Assembly: GCF_056746865.1 (NCBI RefSeq)
Contig: NZ_CM163382.1
DNA: 64,000 nt
Direction: 5' to 3' (one strand)
A model generated the notes under the pieces. It worked only from the letters and a program-made list of their open reading frames with translations, made no database searches and was not told the DNA's origin. The stretch's first letter is position 1. Each line of letters starts with the position of its first letter. The position numbers and the translations under genes were made by a program. Shown here piece after piece: positions 19,685 through 55,366 of the stretch.

Positions 19685-20019
19685 TTATGTTGGCGTTTTC
19701 TATTCAGTATAGAAGTCGGAGCGGCTGGGCGAGATGCGGAAGTTCTGGAATGCTTCTTTTTTTTGGTGATGGTGAACTGATTGTGACTGAAGAAGTTTGG
19801 CTACTTTTGCAATGTGACAAGTTATGGCAGAGCTGGCTGGTGGCGAAGAATTTTGACGATTGAGGCATGCAGAAAAATACGGGTTCAGCTTCAGTTGATC
19901 AAATGAGGAGTGAGAAGTCCGAAACAGGACTCACTGTATAAATAAACAGCTATTTTGCTGAAGAAGGGTAAGATAACGGCGGGTGCCTGAAGCTTTCCGG
20001 TTTCAGGTTTACTCTGAGG

Positions 20020-20085
20020 TCTGGAAAGATGAAGCCCCAGGACGATATTTCTATCAACCCTGGGGCTGCCACTCCAAACCCAAAC
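20020..20085 (-). ncRNA. sokE: Putative SokE antisense RNA region
   Basis: Placed by analogy with hok/sok loci, where Sok is antisense to the mok translation-initiation region; no promoter or terminator was resolved, so boundaries are approximate. Confidence 0.3.
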
Positions 20086-20217
20086 AATTTGGATGGTAGT
20101 CCCTTCTTCGCATGGAGGCAATATAAACATGCTGACGAAATATGCCCTTGTGGCTGTCATAGTGCTGTGTTTAACGGTGCTGGGATTTACGCTTCTGGTC
20201 GGAGACTCGCTGTGTGA
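20029..20217 (+). CDS. mokE: MokE, overlapping reading frame needed for hok translation
   Basis: 62-aa ORF starting ATGAAGCCCCAGG upstream of hokE and overlapping it in another frame, as is typical for mok. Confidence 0.55.
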
Positions 20218-21765: not shown

Positions 21766-22235
21766 AGAAGTCCGAAACAGGACTCGCTGTATAAATAAAC
21801 AGCTATTTTGATAAGGAAGGGTAAGATAACGGCGGGTGCCTGAAGCTTTCCGGTTTCAGGTTTACTCTGAGGTCTGGAAAGATGAAGCCCCAGGAGATAT
21901 TTCTATCAACCCTGGGGCTGCCACTCCAAACCAGACAATTTGGATGGTAGTCCCTTCTTCGCATGGAGGCAATATAAACATGCTGACGAAATATGCCCTT
22001 GTGGCAGTCATAGTGCTGTGTTTAACGGTGCTGGGATTTACGCTTCTGGTCGGAGACTCGCTGTGTGAGTTTACGGTGAAGGAACGTAATATTGAGTTTA
22101 AGGCTGTTCTCGCTTACGAACCGAAGAAGTAGCCGTTGTGCGGGGAGTAATCCCCGCATATCCGGTTGTCAGGTCAGGGTGGTAAGGCACCTGCTTTACA
22201 CTTTCGCCCGCGGTCAGTGATGGCTGCGGGCGAAT
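21766..22235. repeat. hokE locus repeat unit, copy 2 (complete unit between IS186 and entD)
   Basis: Matches copy 1 (19913..20302 plus 21642..21765) apart from a few substitutions and two 1-nt deletions in the mok region; contains an intact copy of the IS186 target palindrome at about 22139-22156. Confidence 0.85.
21980..22132 (+). CDS. hokE: Hok-family toxin HokE, copy 2 (50-aa frame intact; upstream mok frame altered)
   Basis: Identical Hok peptide; in this copy two 1-nt deletions truncate mok to about 22 codons and open an upstream-extended ORF (21836..22132) in the hok frame. Confidence 0.75.
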
Positions 22236-22874: not shown

Positions 22875-23048
22875 ATCGACTATATTCGAGACTGATGACA
22901 AACGCAAAACTGCCTGATGCGCTACGCTTATCAGGCCTACATGGTCCTGCAATATATTGAATTGGCAAGATTTTTGTAGGCCGGATAAGGCGTTCACGCC
23001 GCATCCGGCATGAACGACGCGCACTTTGTCAACAATCTGACGTTAGCA

Positions 23049-46164: not shown

Positions 46165-47325
46165 ATGACAAATAACCCTCTGATTCCACAAAGCAAACTT
46201 CCACAACTTGGCACCACTATTTTCACCCAGATGAGCGCGCTGGCGCAGCAACACCAGGCGATTAACCTTTCGCAAGGCTTTCCTGATTTTGATGGTCCGC
46301 GCTATTTGCAGGAGCGGCTGGCGTACCATGTTGACCAGGGGGCAAACCAATACGCGCCTATGACTGGCGTGCAGGCCTTGCGCGAGGCGATTGCTCAGAA
46401 AACGGAACGTCTGTATGGCTATCAACCGGATGCCGATAGTGATATCACCGTAACGGCAGGGGCGACGGAAGCGTTATATGCAGCGATTACCGCATTGGTG
46501 CGCAATGGTGATGAAGTGATCTGCTTTGATCCCAGCTATGACAGTTACGCGCCCGCCATCGCGCTTTCGGGGGGAATAGTGAAACGTATTGCACTGCAAC
46601 CACCGCATTTTCGCGTGGACTGGCAGGAATTTGCCGCATTGTTAAGCGAGCGCACCCGACTGGTGATCCTCAACACCCCGCATAACCCCAGTGCAACTGT
46701 CTGGCAGCAGGCTGATTTCGCCGCTTTGTGGCAGGCAATTGCCGGGCACGAGATTTTTGTCATTAGCGATGAAGTTTACGAGCACATCAACTTTTCACAA
46801 CAGGGCCATGCCAGCGTGCAGGCGCATCCGCAGCTGCGTGAGCGGGCGGTGGCAGTTTCTTCATTTGGCAAGACCTATCATATGACCGGCTGGAAAGTGG
46901 GTTATTGCGTTGCGCCAGCGCCCATCAGTGCCGAAATTCGCAAGGTACATCAGTATCTGACCTTTTCGGTGAATACCCCGGCACAGCTGGCGCTTGCCGA
47001 TATGCTACGTGCAGAACCTGAGCATTATCTTGCGTTACCGGACTTTTATCGCCAGAAGCGCGATATTCTGGTGAATGCCTTAAATGAAAGCCGGCTGGAG
47101 ATTTTACCGTGCGAAGGTACATACTTTTTGCTGGTGGATTACAGCGCCGTATCTACCCTGGATGACGTTGAGTTTTGCCAGTGGCTGACGCAGGAGCACG
47201 GCGTAGCGGCGATTCCGCTATCGGTGTTTTGCGCCGATCCCTTCCCACATAAACTGATTCGTCTCTGTTTTGCCAAGAAGGAATCGACGTTGCTGGCAGC
47301 AGCTGAACGCCTGCGCCAGCTTTAG
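46165..47325 (+). CDS. ybdL: Methionine aminotransferase YbdL (PLP-dependent)
   Basis: 386-aa ORF MTNNPLIPQSKLPQLGTTIFTQMSALAQQHQAINLSQGFPDFDGPRYLQERLAYHVDQGANQYAPMTGVQALREAIA... Confidence 0.95.
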   Translation: MTNNPLIPQSKLPQLGTTIFTQMSALAQQHQAINLSQGFPDFDGPRYLQERLAYHVDQGANQYAPMTGVQALREAIAQKTERLYGYQPDADSDITVTAGATEALYAAITALVRNGDEVICFDPSYDSYAPAIALSGGIVKRIALQPPHFRVDWQEFAALLSERTRLVILNTPHNPSATVWQQADFAALWQAIAGHEIFVISDEVYEHINFSQQGHASVQAHPQLRERAVAVSSFGKTYHMTGWKVGYCVAPAPISAEIRKVHQYLTFSVNTPAQLALADMLRAEPEHYLALPDFYRQKRDILVNALNESRLEILPCEGTYFLLVDYSAVSTLDDVEFCQWLTQEHGVAAIPLSVFCADPFPHKLIRLCFAKKESTLLAAAERLRQL

Positions 47326-47955
47326 CTATTTAACCGTCCAGGCGCGGGAATATTGACGGTCGGCAAACAACTCTTGCAGGCCGTTAATTTGCTTCAGGCG
47401 TAGCACTTCGTCGCTGTCCATTCCCAGCTCTTTGCCAATTTTATTATCGTCCCATCCCAACTGGCTGAGTTCACGGACGATTTCTGACATGGCAGTGATT
47501 TGGTGACGTCCACGAGCGCGGTTATGACGAATAGTCGCGGCGATGCGTTGATTACGCGTACCTTCCAGACAGGTCACCGGCAAATAACCTTTTAAGCGTA
47601 ATTTTAACGATGATGAGCCTTTACCAATTTCATGGCGGTGAAAACCATCCACGATTTCCAGGGCATTTTTATCCGTATGCGTGACCACAATGGGTTGGGT
47701 AAAACCATCTATTTCAATGGATTTTTTCAGCAGTTTTTTTTCGGGTGGTGCCACGTTGTTTGGGTTGTAATCATTAGGCATAAGTTGGCTGTTTTTAACC
47801 CACAGAACGCAATCCACTGGCTCTTCTCGAAAGGGGCTAACCTGATGGATCGCCATGCGGATTTCATTAATCGCTTTGATGCGATCGTCTTCCGGCAAGC
47901 TGGCGAGAAATTGGGTTAAATCCTGCGTTAATCGTTGTTGCATAGTATCCCCCAT
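47326..47955 (-). CDS. ybdM: YbdM, ParB/Srx-like nuclease-domain protein
   Basis: 209-aa ORF MGDTMQQRLTQDLTQFLASLPEDDRIKAINEIRMAIHQVSPFREEPVDCVLWVKNSQLMPNDYNPNNVAPPEKKLLKKSIEIDGFTQPIVV... Confidence 0.9.
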   Translation of the reverse strand: MGDTMQQRLTQDLTQFLASLPEDDRIKAINEIRMAIHQVSPFREEPVDCVLWVKNSQLMPNDYNPNNVAPPEKKLLKKSIEIDGFTQPIVVTHTDKNALEIVDGFHRHEIGKGSSSLKLRLKGYLPVTCLEGTRNQRIAATIRHNRARGRHQITAMSEIVRELSQLGWDDNKIGKELGMDSDEVLRLKQINGLQELFADRQYSRAWTVK

Positions 47956-49148
47956 TCCTGACGTTTTCCTTTTATTCGTTCGTTATAACGCTGATAGTTC
48001 TTCGCTTTGGTCGGGCTAAATGATAATGCCCGACACCAGTAATCGTTATTGAGTAAAACTTTGCATATTCGCCGCCAGGAGGGGATATCTTTCGCGCCAA
48101 TGTCCCCTTGCTGGGTTTGTGGAACCTCGATGCCTTTTTTCTGATACCAGTGCAAATAAATGGCGATTTTATTGCGATAATGCTCAGCTGTTTTCTCCGG
48201 CATGCTGTTGAGTAGCAATAATGCATACTCCTGCCAGTCTAAATGTTCGGGCTTGAGGATTTTCCGATGACCATAAAAATGGTTGTCATGTCCGGCGTAA
48301 ATGCCGCCACTTTTTACCCCGCTGACTCGTGCGCACATAGCAGCCCAGCGATCCGGTTCGATAACGTGATAGAGCCATAATCCTTGCCGTTGTTCCGGAC
48401 CAAAAGGTTCGCAAATTCGCATATGACGTAGAGGAACGCCTGCCTGATACATTATATTATACAGTGGGTTACAGAGGCGTTGATGGCTAGCATACCAGGT
48501 CCAGATATCAGCGACTTTCCAGTCGTAGATGGGGTAAATGTACCAGCTATGACCGCCTGGTGCGGCAGTAGTCCAGGGCTTATCATCGGCAAAACGTTGT
48601 TTATTTAAACTGGCGATGGCGACAAAACGGTTGTAGGACTCATCCGCACGGATGCCGATCATCATCGCCGCCGGACGTTTTTGCGAAAACCATTCGGCAA
48701 ACTCACGCACAAATTGTTCGAAGGTCATGCCAGGCTGGTAAAAGGAGAAAAAGTCAGGATCGGTTATCGCATCTTGCGGGGGCTGACGTACCCATTCGAC
48801 ATCAGGTTCCCAGCACTGCCATTCGGGTTGGTATTGTGATAGGGAATTTTGCGTTGTAAGCGGGAGCGCAATCCAGTAAAACTCTTCGATGACATCGGTG
48901 TACAACTCGCGCAGAGACTGAACATAGTTAATGGTGCAAGAGAACTGAGCTTCCCAGTCGATAAATAAAACACAAATTTTTTTGCCCATTTGTCGGGCAA
49001 GTTCGGCGGTCAGATGCAGCATTAATCCGGAATCTTTACCACCCGAAAAAGAAACGCAGACGCGGGGTAGGGTGTTAAGTGTCCAGGTAATACGTTCTTT
49101 TGCAGCTTCCAGAATATTCAGTGGAAGCGGGATTTTATAAATAGACAT
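47928..49148 (-). CDS. ybdN: YbdN, PAPS reductase-like (adenine nucleotide alpha hydrolase) domain protein
   Basis: 406-aa ORF MSIYKIPLPLNILEAAKERITWTLNTLPRVCVSFSGGKDSGLMLHLTAELARQMGKKICVLFIDWEAQF... with the PP-loop motif SFSGGKDS; 3' end overlaps the ybdM start by 28 bp. Confidence 0.9.
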   Translation of the reverse strand: MSIYKIPLPLNILEAAKERITWTLNTLPRVCVSFSGGKDSGLMLHLTAELARQMGKKICVLFIDWEAQFSCTINYVQSLRELYTDVIEEFYWIALPLTTQNSLSQYQPEWQCWEPDVEWVRQPPQDAITDPDFFSFYQPGMTFEQFVREFAEWFSQKRPAAMMIGIRADESYNRFVAIASLNKQRFADDKPWTTAAPGGHSWYIYPIYDWKVADIWTWYASHQRLCNPLYNIMYQAGVPLRHMRICEPFGPEQRQGLWLYHVIEPDRWAAMCARVSGVKSGGIYAGHDNHFYGHRKILKPEHLDWQEYALLLLNSMPEKTAEHYRNKIAIYLHWYQKKGIEVPQTQQGDIGAKDIPSWRRICKVLLNNDYWCRALSFSPTKAKNYQRYNERIKGKRQEWGILCNND

Positions 49149-49294
49149 CTGAAAACGCTCTCTGAACGTTACGGGGTGACTCGTGAGATGAATCCGTTAA
49201 TTATAGGGTAAACGAAGCAAGATAGAGCACATTATTTTATATTCACACAATGAATTAATTGATGCGTAATATAACATTTATCCGTGGTAATAAA

Positions 49295-50197
49295 TCAGAA
49301 GCTATCATTTAAACGATCTATGAATCGTGAGAAGACAAGGTTGTTCAACGAAGCCTTGTTATAGGAAATATAAAGTTTAACCGCAGGAAGTGGTCGTTCC
49401 AGTTTTATCTCTTGTAACTTCAAAAAATCACGATGTAAATCGTACAGTTCGGTGGGCACAATGCCCAATAAGTCAGTAACAGAAATACTATTAATTATCG
49501 TCAACAAAGAAGAACTGCGAAATGAAACTTTACGGTTCATAAAACGTTCATCTATGTCCATTTGAATTTCGTCAATCCCTGCTGATTTAGATATCAACAA
49601 GGTGAATTCTTCGGCGATAATTTGTTCATAGTTACTGGTATCGGTAATACGAGGATGTTTGTTGCTACATATAAGAGAATTGCGAATAGTATGTAACGGC
49701 ATGCAGATGACAGAGCGGCTAATTACTGGTTGTAGTGTAATTGCCAGGTCAGTTTTGCGTTGAACCAACAGTTCTTCGGCATTTTCAGCTGAAAGCAGTA
49801 TGTCATGGCATTCTATATCGATTGAAGTATCTTGTCTAAGACAGCGGATTAGCATGTTGTTATTAGTACAAGAAATAAGCTGAGGACCGTAGATAATAAA
49901 ATTTTTCTTTAGCTCAGACTTATTAACAATATTGATCGTTTGTTCAATGCCTCTGAGATTTTTCTCAAGATGATGATGCAGATTTAACCCTGTCGTAGTC
50001 GGCGCGATACCTTTCCCTGAGCGAATGAATAACGGGTCATTAAATTGCGCACGTAAACGTTGTAACGACTGACTAACAGCAGAGGGCGTTATATATAATG
50101 ATTCTGCCGCTTTACTAATGCTGAGATGTTGATAAATACACTCAAATATGACCAGTAAATTCAGATCAAATTTTTTTAGGTCATAAAGATTCGCCAT
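49295..50197 (-). CDS. ybdO: LysR-family transcriptional regulator YbdO
   Basis: Translation MANLYDLKKFDLNLLVIFECIYQHLSISKAAESLYITPSAVSQSLQRLRAQFNDPLFIRSGKGIAPTTTG... (HTH plus LysR substrate-binding domain); AT-rich gene. Confidence 0.9.
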   Translation of the reverse strand: MANLYDLKKFDLNLLVIFECIYQHLSISKAAESLYITPSAVSQSLQRLRAQFNDPLFIRSGKGIAPTTTGLNLHHHLEKNLRGIEQTINIVNKSELKKNFIIYGPQLISCTNNNMLIRCLRQDTSIDIECHDILLSAENAEELLVQRKTDLAITLQPVISRSVICMPLHTIRNSLICSNKHPRITDTSNYEQIIAEEFTLLISKSAGIDEIQMDIDERFMNRKVSFRSSSLLTIINSISVTDLLGIVPTELYDLHRDFLKLQEIKLERPLPAVKLYISYNKASLNNLVFSRFIDRLNDSF

Positions 50198-50404
50198 AAC
50201 ATACTCCGTTATATTATCTCTTCTATAAATCATTCATTTGTTCAATAATGTTGCTGTTGTATTTATTTGTATTATGTTTTTTTGCTTAACTCAGAATTAA
50301 GTTTTTCTAAAATAGCACAGCCACTTAGGGCAGAGCGAGCAATTCATGCTTTTTTAGGATGGTTGAAAAATAGGGATATATTTCAACCATCCATGAATTA
50401 TCTT

Positions 50405-51151: not shown

Positions 51152-51522
51152 TAATTTGTCCTTTTCAGTCAGTGCAAAAGTCGGGTAAAAGGCATAACCT
51201 ATCACTGTCATAGGTAAGAGCTTAGATCAGGTGATTGCCCTTTGTTTATGAGGGTGTTGTAATCCATGTCGTTGTTGCATTTGTAAGGGCAACACCTCAG
51301 CCTGCAGGCAGGCGCTGAAGATACCAAAGGGTAGTTCAGATTACACGGTCACCTGGAAAGGGGGCCATTTTACTTTTTATCGCCGCTGGCGGTGCAAAGT
51401 TCACAAAGTTGTCTTACGAAGGTTGTAAGGTAAAACTTATCGATTTGATAATGGAAACGCATTAGCCGAATCGGCAAAAATTGGTTACCTTACATCTCAT
51501 CGAAAACACGGAGGAAGTATAG

Positions 51523-55137: not shown

Positions 55138-55366
55138 TTTTACTCCATGTCGTCGGTACTGCGAGTGTCGCAGATAAACATACCCAAAAGAAAACCCTCA
55201 CCGTCAGGCGGCGAGGGTTTAACTCACATGATGATACTGACTGTTGCTCACTCTTTGAAGTGATTTGCGTCACATTCAGGGAATTCCTCAATGTAGCGCA
55301 TTATGTATAAATCTTAATCGTCATGGTTTATGGAAGACGAATTAGCGTGTTTTGTAAATCAGAGGA

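Follow-up and report, generated by a model that had tools for sequence, protein, structure and literature searches.

The ybdN-ybdM gene pair of Escherichia coli, a silenced IbrA/IbrB-family module that may act on DNA

Introduction

In the literature, IbrA and IbrB are described as needed for the expression of prophage-borne eib (immunoglobulin-binding) genes. They share a two-gene architecture in which a gene with PAPS_reduct and DUF3440 domains is followed by an overlapping IbrB-type ParB-like gene. A PP-loop enzyme of the phosphoadenosine phosphosulfate (PAPS) reductase superfamily is likewise associated with a protein of the ParB/sulfiredoxin (Srx) superfamily in DndC/DndB of phosphorothioate DNA modification (see also SspD and BrxP), and residue C280 of DndC is an indispensable ligand of a [4Fe-4S] cluster (PMC11662687). 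In DpdA/DpdB, which modify DNA with 7-deazaguanine, the enzyme requires a ParB-like NTPase partner for its action on DNA (PMC12839542), and SNF2-type helicases are often encoded nearby. Here, we compare with these systems the genes ybdN and ybdM, which lie with the LysR-type gene ybdO (citR) in a 64,000-nucleotide stretch of Escherichia coli DNA (contig NZ_CM163382.1 of RefSeq assembly GCF_056746865.1), hereafter called the window. The genes, with their domains, folds and conserved residues, as well as the statistics of pairing, the purifying selection and the synteny, were observed or computed from the data described below, and the regulation of the locus is taken from publications.

The citR-ybdN-ybdM locus is already known and annotated. 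In RefSeq, ybdN carries the product name 'phosphoadenosine phosphosulfate reductase', ybdM is called 'IbrB-like domain-containing protein', and the name of citR is 'DNA-binding transcriptional repressor CitR'. The original prediction made from the DNA of the window had rightly considered the role of the pair not well established. Both ybdN and ybdM are conserved core genes of E. coli without an assigned function, although in the laboratory they are kept silent. Phages from at least four bacterial phyla commonly carry the pair, as do hundreds of virulence plasmids, and about 39% of E. coli genomes have an accessory copy; many of these family members bear the label 'PAPS reductase' and are counted as viral sulfur-metabolism genes. 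From its sequences, this label is probably wrong for the family, and is made doubtful by the lack of a catalytic cysteine and by the ParB-like partner. We tentatively favor, with a little less than even confidence, the view that ybdNM encodes a silenced two-subunit complex derived from a mobile element and directed at DNA. The chemistry of the pair would assign a function to a large gene family of phages, plasmids and chromosomes, and could also account for how IbrAB switches on prophage and adhesin genes.

Results

ybdN and ybdM form a core chromosomal IbrA/IbrB-type pair

YbdN has the architecture of IbrA, with an N-terminal PP-loop PAPS_reduct domain (Pfam, 1.2e-14) and a C-terminal DUF3440 domain (2.9e-32), and matches phrog_2302 (9.7e-77). 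The PP-loop SFSGGKDS and the PAPS reductase-like nature of the protein had been read correctly from the sequence. The adjoining, overlapping and co-directional ybdM carries the NxYNPN, DGFHR and TIRHNRARGxH motifs of IbrB-type genes. Kinship with IbrA/IbrB, also part of the original prediction, is borne out by annotation: besides the RefSeq name of ybdM, a YbdN orthologue at 73% identity is named 'IbrA family prophage gene co-activator'. Furthermore, accessory copies in E. coli, on plasmids and in prophages that bear the annotation of IbrB-like pairs share 57-58% identity with YbdN, the comparison being made with such database-named pairs and not with the original ECOR-9 sequences.

The setting of the pair differs from that of IbrAB-type copies. 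The latter are accessory and lie in islands, prophages and plasmids; a pair about 57% identical to YbdN occurs in 2094 of 5426 E. coli genomes (39%), in up to four copies each. In contrast, ybdNM belongs to the core chromosome, where it has a fixed place between dsbG and ybdL and a LysR repressor of its own. The 3.2-kb segment was matched in 5422 of the 5426 complete genomes. Because the order ahpCF-dsbG-LysR-ybdN-ybdM-ybdL is common to Klebsiella pneumoniae (YbdN 73% identical) and Salmonella (82%), the insertion is old. Between E. coli lineages, the ratio of nonsynonymous to synonymous substitution rates (dN/dS) is 0.04-0.11 for ybdM, 0.03-0.06 for ybdN and 0.03-0.04 for citR, values indicative of strong purifying selection and of working genes rather than decaying remnants.

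All three genes are open reading frames (ORFs) on the minus strand of the window, which agrees with the predicted co-directional arrangement, and the predicted 28-bp overlap of ybdN and ybdM is exact for the annotated start codons (Table 1). The true start of ybdM is probably Met5 at 47943, giving 205 aa: orthologues from Citrobacter and Intestinirhabdus (205 aa) begin at the equivalent of this residue, and its ATG is preceded by a Shine-Dalgarno-like run, GGGGGA. The resulting 16-nt overlap is the same as in the Klebsiella pair and in accessory IbrAB-type pairs, and homologous pairs show overlaps of -16 and -4. This geometry is typical of translational coupling, to which the overlap of stop and start codons points.

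The pair is widespread and tightly linked on mobile elements

The YbdN family comprises 217 clusters (50% identity) at E <= 1e-30 and 1682 at E <= 1e-3, and a tblastn search found relatives in 224 phage and 854 plasmid records. A scan of IMG/VR for YbdN relatives yielded 80 loci, in which partners were sought with hidden Markov models (HMMs) built from our own alignments. An IbrB-like ORF was present on the same strand in 71 of these 80 viral contigs, and two of the nine loci without a partner are cut by the contig end. The two genes directly adjoin each other in 54 of the 71 cases, with the YbdN-like gene first in 34 and the IbrB-like gene first in 20, and are separated by a small gap in 17. 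This pairing is far beyond chance. In general, the ParB-like gene adjoins the PAPS_reduct/DUF3440 gene downstream, and in some cases upstream. Adjoining pairs were found in Streptococcus phage 94, Pseudoalteromonas phage XCL1123, Arthrobacter phage Salgado, Fusobacterium phage phiFN37 and mycobacteriophage Akoma, as well as in a Listeria monocytogenes chromosome and in Ralstonia.

The genes that recur beside the pair often concern DNA. An SNF2-family helicase neighbors it in 18 viral loci, directly upstream of the YbdN-like gene, and in L. monocytogenes a block encodes, in order, SNF2-related, DUF3440, ParB, class I S-adenosylmethionine (SAM) methyltransferase and DUF2785 proteins (L008:4803-9432). 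DNA methyltransferase and terminase genes adjoin the pair in several phages, and the matches of the IbrB-type ParB domain include domains that occur in fusion with DNA methyltransferases of phages (phrog_498; PADLOC MTase_II). Judged by gene content, these helicase, methyltransferase and terminase neighbors point to DNA as the arena of the pair. The five genes of the Listeria block are co-directional and adjoin lexA/yneA, on a chromosomal segment deposited as 'plasmid 6'; the same SNF2 gene precedes the YbdN-like gene in the 18 viral loci.

Other companions are enzymes or domains of various kinds. In 40 viral loci, the pair comes with a domain of about 130 aa, encoded either by an ORF of its own or as a C-terminal fusion to IbrB. 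This domain has no match in Pfam, NCBIfam, PHROG or the PDB and no name in the source records, and the E. coli window lacks it. The domain carries the motifs W-E-x-Y/H-x-A-G-x-Y and N-R-x-A-W-L-G-Q-A (loci L023-L063 and others; for example L063:5594-6007 and the C-terminal part of L043:4163-5413). Phage loci also contain an EctC-like cupin (PF06339, 1.3e-32), either on its own or in fusion with IbrB, and a fusion of IbrB with an HNH/NUMOD homing-endonuclease module; in five viral loci, GNAT acetyltransferases stand beside the pair. Loci with such accessory enzymes (cupin, HNH/NUMOD, GNAT) include L085:7290-8189, L004:5308-5700, L080:7271-8275 and L009:6203-6640. In Ralstonia, ibrA and ibrB have a weak GNAT-like ORF between them.

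In cells, accessory pairs are located in islands for virulence or adhesins: they have a PerC-like regulator and cah as neighbors in O157, and an autotransporter on a plasmid. IncF-type virulence plasmids carry the pair beside iuc or iro islands. In Ralstonia, the hemagglutinin RadA is upregulated together with ibrAB in an rprR mutant.

YbdN is a PP-loop protein without an invariant cysteine

We aligned YbdN with its relatives (81 homologues). Residues S35, G37, K38, D39 and S40 of the PP-loop are invariant, as are R19, D64, E66, E170, S171, R174, P206, D209, D214, Y230, R244 and Y284 elsewhere in the protein. None of the cysteines is invariant among these homologues: the best kept, C372, is present in 72 of the 81, and the remaining ones vary independently. 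The DUF3440 half carries a conserved motif, PSWRRxCKxLLxNDYWCKxLGF, and has no counterpart among solved structures. Sequence searches with YbdN and YbdM against PDB chains found nothing close, and the structure model of YbdN groups with adenosine phosphosulfate (APS) reductase, FAD synthase and CysD. Going by the established chemistry of the PP-loop superfamily, the combination of a canonical PP-loop with the lack of a catalytic cysteine suggests chemistry at the alpha-phosphate of ATP, that is adenylyl transfer with release of pyrophosphate, rather than PAPS reduction or Fe-S-dependent sulfur insertion.

Four semi-conserved cysteines of E. coli YbdN were considered as a DndC-like Fe-S site and rejected as a feature of the family, since their positions vary independently. 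Long YbdN homologues contained no additional domains in Pfam. The only candidate for a fusion was a doubtful chimera of an IbrB N-terminal domain with DUF3440 (P0364).

YbdM combines a ParB-like fold with divergent motifs

The assignment of YbdM to the ParB/Srx-like proteins proved sound. The protein matches Pfam ParB_N at 2.7e-5 (24.6 bits, slightly below the gathering score of 26.3 bits) and phrog_2159 at 3.9e-69. Its AlphaFold2 (AF2) model has a mean confidence (pLDDT) of 87.5 and contains helices at residues 134-147, 153-165, 170-177 and 181-196. The best Foldseek matches of this predicted structure are a truncated Noc, ParB bound to CTP or CDP, KorB and Spo0J (E 4.9e-8 to 1e-5, about 155 columns). 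These alignments, of 155-159 columns, span both the N-domain and the helix-turn-helix (HTH) domain of ParB, Noc and KorB, while sulfiredoxin, SbnI and a serine kinase match the N-domain only. A profile search of PDB chains with an alignment of 77 YbdM sequences recovered only the N-domains of ParB, Noc and SbnI.

Across the 77 sequences, the N-domain motifs N61-x-x-N64-P65-N66 and D103-G104-F-H106-R107 are invariant, together with E72, T141, N145, A147, G149, H151, G178, E183 and Q189; T141, N145, A147, G149 and H151 belong to the TIRHNRARGxH motif of the HTH region, in which G178, E183 and Q189 lie as well. The NPN of the first motif aligns to QPR of ParB box I, and DGFHR aligns to AGERR, so that the GERR of box II is replaced by GFHR. 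Of the ParB box residues, YbdM keeps solely the glycine and the final arginine. From this alignment, DGFHR is the counterpart of ParB box II and of the 'HR' phosphate-binding motif of Srx/SbnI type. The predicted structure ends after the HTH helices, with no C-terminal dimerization domain, and a helical hairpin is added at the N-terminus in enterobacterial members. At the sequence level, homologues encoded by Gram-positive phages share 36-49% identity with YbdM, which is unusually high for such distant hosts.

Comparison with Dnd, sulfate-assimilation and clamp systems

The original prediction had likened the pair to DndC and DndB, and proposed a profile comparison. Judged on curated HMM thresholds, YbdN reaches 21.7 bits with the DndC model TIGR03183, whose cut-off is 290.4, with only residues 145-222 aligned, and again 21.7 bits with the DndC model of PADLOC; YbdM has no DndB match at E <= 0.1 in NCBIfam or PADLOC. 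The SGGKDS of the DndC PP-loop is present in YbdN, where it is a feature common to the whole superfamily, and the cysteine ligands of the [4Fe-4S] cluster are absent from the YbdN family. We found no dndD, dndE or desulfurase gene at the locus (neighbors ybdL, citR, dsbG and ahpCF), nor Dnd-type partners among the recurrent neighbors of the 71 viral loci, and the modeled fold of YbdM is nearer to ParB, Noc and KorB. Thus, the part of the analogy that pairs a PP-loop PAPS-reductase protein with a ParB/Srx protein stands, and the part that concerns the DndC/DndB families, their cysteines and their partners (DndA, DndD and DndE) does not: on these profiles the resemblance is real at the superfamily level only.

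YbdN is equally distant from the enzymes of sulfate assimilation. With CysH-type models, it reaches 34.0 bits (TIGR02057, cut-off 254.2), 33.2 bits (NF002537, 154) and 23.6 bits (TIGR00434, 165.1), and its family has no invariant cysteine for the catalytic C-terminal position. It has a canonical ATP-type PP-loop, as have CysD, FAD synthase and DndC, and lies far below all curated cut-offs for CysD (which works with CysN), the PAPS domain of FAD synthase, and APS/PAPS reductases, from which it differs by the extra DUF3440 half, another partner and the lack of a catalytic cysteine. YbdM resembles the CTP clamps ParB, Noc and KorB, its best structural matches, in having an N-terminal nucleotide-binding domain followed by an HTH, as predicted by the model. 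It differs from them by NPN in place of QPR, GFHR in place of GERR, its sub-threshold ParB_N score, the predicted absence of a C-terminal dimerization domain, and the additional N-terminal hairpin.

The closest functional parallel may be DpdB-DpdA, a likeness in possible working and not in membership. As described above, a ParB-like NTPase assists a DNA-modifying enzyme there, with SNF2-type helicases nearby. That enzyme is a tRNA-guanine transglycosylase (TGT)-family protein and not a PP-loop ATPase, and ybdNM has no linked genes for 7-deazaguanine synthesis. PADLOC gave marginal matches only and no known defense system. We also considered a sulfiredoxin-type link of YbdM to the neighboring ahpC, which was rejected: the synteny is ancestral, and phage copies have no peroxiredoxin neighbor.

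Published regulation of the locus

YbdO matches the HTH_1 and LysR_substrate domains of Pfam and scores 451.9 bits with the NCBIfam CitR equivalog NF047710 (cut-off 400). Its region is AT-rich, as predicted, with a GC content of 0.34-0.38 over 49.2-50.4 kb vs. about 0.5 in the flanks. The prediction had been made without the published regulation of the locus, namely the repression of ybdO by H-NS (PMC4720273) and the renaming of YbdO as CitR, reported as a repressor of ybdNM (PMC9068703). For ybdO, the site where transcription starts was mapped about 107 bp upstream of its start codon (PMC4720273), which falls near 50304 in the window.

PMC9068703 describes a YbdO peak in ChIP-exo upstream of citR-ybdNM and, in a ybdO mutant of BW25113, increases of log2 5.5 for ybdN and log2 2.5 for ybdM. 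Alongside ybdNM, the cys regulon (cysDNC, cysJI, cysAWU) rises about 4- to 7-fold in the citR mutant, and so does the flagellar regulon (PMC9068703, Table 1). De-repressed YbdN might have a sulfur or ATP-sulfur link that shows in the cys response. In E. coli carrying plasmid pUUH239.2, the YbdM protein is 29-fold more abundant, an effect linked to blaCTX-M-15 (PMC8764527). pUUH239.2 is a Klebsiella plasmid, and many Klebsiella plasmids bear a YbdN/YbdM homologue pair; peptides of plasmid-encoded homologues might conceivably contribute to the 29-fold rise.

Discussion

Taken together, citR-ybdN-ybdM may be an anciently domesticated IbrA/IbrB-family module of mobile origin that is normally off in E. 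coli. H-NS silences the AT-rich citR region, and CitR reportedly represses its own promoter and ybdNM (PMC9068703). On expression, the translationally coupled YbdN and YbdM would most likely act on DNA as a single complex. In it, the predicted ParB/Noc/KorB-like N-domain and HTH of YbdM would provide for binding to DNA, with a non-canonical nucleotide pocket (NPN, DGFHR). As a PP-loop ATP pyrophosphatase that needs no cysteine, YbdN would adenylate some acceptor, which is most plausibly a group either of the DNA itself or of a ligand bound to it. The result would be a changed expression or fate of foreign DNA. Extended to the whole family, the idea that IbrA/IbrB-type pairs including ybdNM form a very widespread DNA-targeting enzyme system, in which a non-canonical, nucleotide-binding ParB-like protein directs a cysteine-independent PP-loop adenylating enzyme to DNA, is possible but doubtful. 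If true, it would represent a novel kind of epigenetic switch or of DNA modification, which phage variants extend with the 130-aa domain, the EctC-like cupin, GNAT and SNF2 proteins.

Several points weigh against this proposal. Formation of the YbdN-YbdM complex, its binding to a DNA target, DNA modification by adenylation chemistry, and the physiological output rest on inference and not on direct evidence, and no IbrA-IbrB fusion protein, which would have proved physical interaction, was found. A ParB-like clamp mechanism of YbdM cannot be assumed from the model, because the box I/II residues and the C-terminal dimerization domain are missing. The EctC-like cupin and GNAT proteins of phages could equally indicate small-molecule chemistry. 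Phenotypes are weak: deletion of ybdM shifts fitness by 1-2%, which is near-neutral, and overexpression of YbdM slows growth by about 10% (PMC8764527). Finally, read-through from the disrupted citR locus could contribute to the rise of ybdNM in the mutant described in PMC9068703, because no terminator separates citR from ybdN.

The alternative of a pure transcription-factor pair, with YbdM as regulator or anti-silencer and YbdN as a nucleotide-dependent co-activator that makes no chemical change to DNA, seems to us unlikely without being far-fetched. VirB, a ParB-family protein, counter-silences H-NS, the modeled fold of YbdM with its HTH is like that of KorB and Noc, and accessory copies lie in virulence or adhesin islands beside regulators (PerC-like/cah in O157, iuc/iro islands, the autotransporter, Ralstonia radA). 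Against it, the PP-loop and a catalytic-looking set (D64, E66, E170, S171, R174, D209, D214, R244) are invariant across phyla, which argues for enzymatic turnover by YbdN, and host-type control of transcription is less obvious for virulent phages that carry the pair beside terminase, methyltransferase and helicase genes. We consider it improbable that the pair is a phage-defense, abortive-infection, toxin-antitoxin-like or phage anti-defense module kept in the chromosome. Its spread over phages, plasmids and islands, its SNF2, methyltransferase and HNH neighbors, its silencing in the manner of other foreign genes and the growth cost of YbdM overexpression noted above (PMC8764527) would suit such a role; the absence of a meaningful PADLOC match does not, and a core locus that is syntenic in Enterobacteriaceae and under strong purifying selection is unlike typical defense islands.

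The remaining explanations account for less of the evidence. Mycobacteriophage Akoma, where the pair is immediately upstream of the large terminase, and Arthrobacter phage Salgado, where it is close to terminase genes, suggest a packaging or partition function (a ParB-like small terminase or partition protein) of which the chromosomal copy would be a remnant. This is very unlikely, given that Salgado has its own small terminase, that many loci lie instead in replication/recombination modules, that the chromosomal copy is under purifying selection, and that the PP-loop enzyme would be left without a role. Dnd-like phosphorothioation or another DNA-sulfur modification draws on the common superfamilies, on weak local matches to DndC and BrxP, and on the cys regulon response in the citR mutant with de-repressed ybdNM (PMC9068703); with the DndC score so far under its cut-off, no DndB match for YbdM, no invariant cysteine where DndC requires C280 (PMC11662687), and neither dndD, dndE nor a desulfurase at the locus or among recurrent phage neighbors, we regard it as highly improbable. 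That YbdN is a true PAPS/APS reductase of sulfate assimilation, as its RefSeq label says, with YbdM an unrelated neighbor, is barely credible: its scores with CysH-type models (23.6-34 bits vs. cut-offs of 154-254), the lack of an invariant cysteine for a thiosulfonate intermediate, the ATP-type PP-loop and the tight coupling to a ParB-like partner in phages without a sulfur pathway all speak against the label.

Locus features and further observations

The coordinates of the locus, which sits between ybdL (plus strand, end at 47325) and dsbG/ahpCF, are given in Table 1. The longest ORF of ybdO covers 49295-50233, and RefSeq CitR, of 300 aa, corresponds to a start at 50197 (MANLYDL).

Table 1. 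Features of the citR-ybdN-ybdM locus in the window.
Feature	Positions	Strand	Evidence
ybdM coding sequence as annotated, 209 aa, IbrB-like, ParB/Srx-fold	47326..47955	-	ORF, RefSeq name, profiles, AF2 model
YbdM ParB-N-like NTP-binding domain, about residues 46-131	47563..47820	-	77-sequence alignment, ParB/Noc profile alignment, Foldseek
YbdM DGFHR motif, residues 103-107	47635..47649	-	alignments, Foldseek
YbdM helical HTH-type predicted DNA-binding domain, about residues 134-196	47368..47556	-	AF2 helices, Foldseek, alignment
ybdN/ybdM overlap, 28 nt with annotated start, 16 nt (47928-47943) with conserved start	47928..47955	-	
ybdN coding sequence, 406 aa, IbrA-like, PP-loop ATP pyrophosphatase fold, PAPS_reduct + DUF3440	47928..49148	-	
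YbdN PP-loop S33-F-S-G-G-K-D-S40	49029..49052	-	ORF translation, 81-homologue alignment
YbdN DUF3440 helical C-terminal half, about residues 237-400	47949..48440	-	
citR-ybdN intergenic region, 146 bp	49149..49294	-	hairpin scan
citR (ybdO) coding sequence, 300-aa LysR-type regulator, AT-rich and bound by H-NS	49295..50197	-	NCBIfam CitR equivalog, GC profile, PMC9068703, PMC4720273
dsbG-citR intergenic region with citR promoter and part of the H-NS-dependent upstream element	50198..50404	-	PMC4720273

A minus-strand scan of the citR-ybdN spacer found no terminator-like hairpin, so that transcripts begun at the citR promoter may read through into ybdNM. Repeat and promoter/terminator scans of the locus gave nothing exceeding chance. 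At the other end, ybdL (plus) and ybdM (minus) are convergent, and because their stop codons adjoin at 47325/47326 without any spacer, an overlap of the two transcripts is inevitable; ExcludonFinder lists ybdL-ybdM as a convergent excludon (PMC12288877).

Two deeply divergent citR alleles exist in E. coli (window 49000-50320, comprising citR and both spacers). The allele of the window is 96.7% identical in nucleotides to that of ST131, and just 79.6% in nucleotides and 88.4% in amino acids to the other allele, as represented by a presumably K-12-like strain; this other allele is present in about 65% of genomes (80-90% identity band). Between the alleles, dS is about 2.2 and dN/dS 0.03, vs. dS of 0.09-0.29 for ybdM, ybdN and ybdL, and the HTH region is the same in both. 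From these values, the divergence looks like replacement by recombination from a distant lineage and not in-situ drift; the high diversity of ybdO was remarked on previously (PMC4720273).

Some strains carry altered forms of the pair. The single 100%-identical match to the segment (NZ_CP090319.1, strain EECO1006) has ybdN split by an IS5 insertion: the segment aligns as two pieces, with an IS5 transposase annotated between them. In Shigella, a shortened YbdM of 163-167 aa is frequent.

Just 3' of the dsbG stop codon lies an inverted repeat (50357-50392; 16-nt arms, 94% complementary, 4-nt loop), close to the upstream H-NS-dependent ybdO element mapped by PMC4720273. An Rfam scan found no RNA family inside the ybdONM locus. 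Elsewhere in the window, five matches reached the gathering level (19981-20137, 21834-21988, 22933-22974, 51285-51378 and 55183-55291), comprising two sok antitoxin RNAs, the small RNA ES036, STnc70 upstream of ahpC, and the rnk leader.

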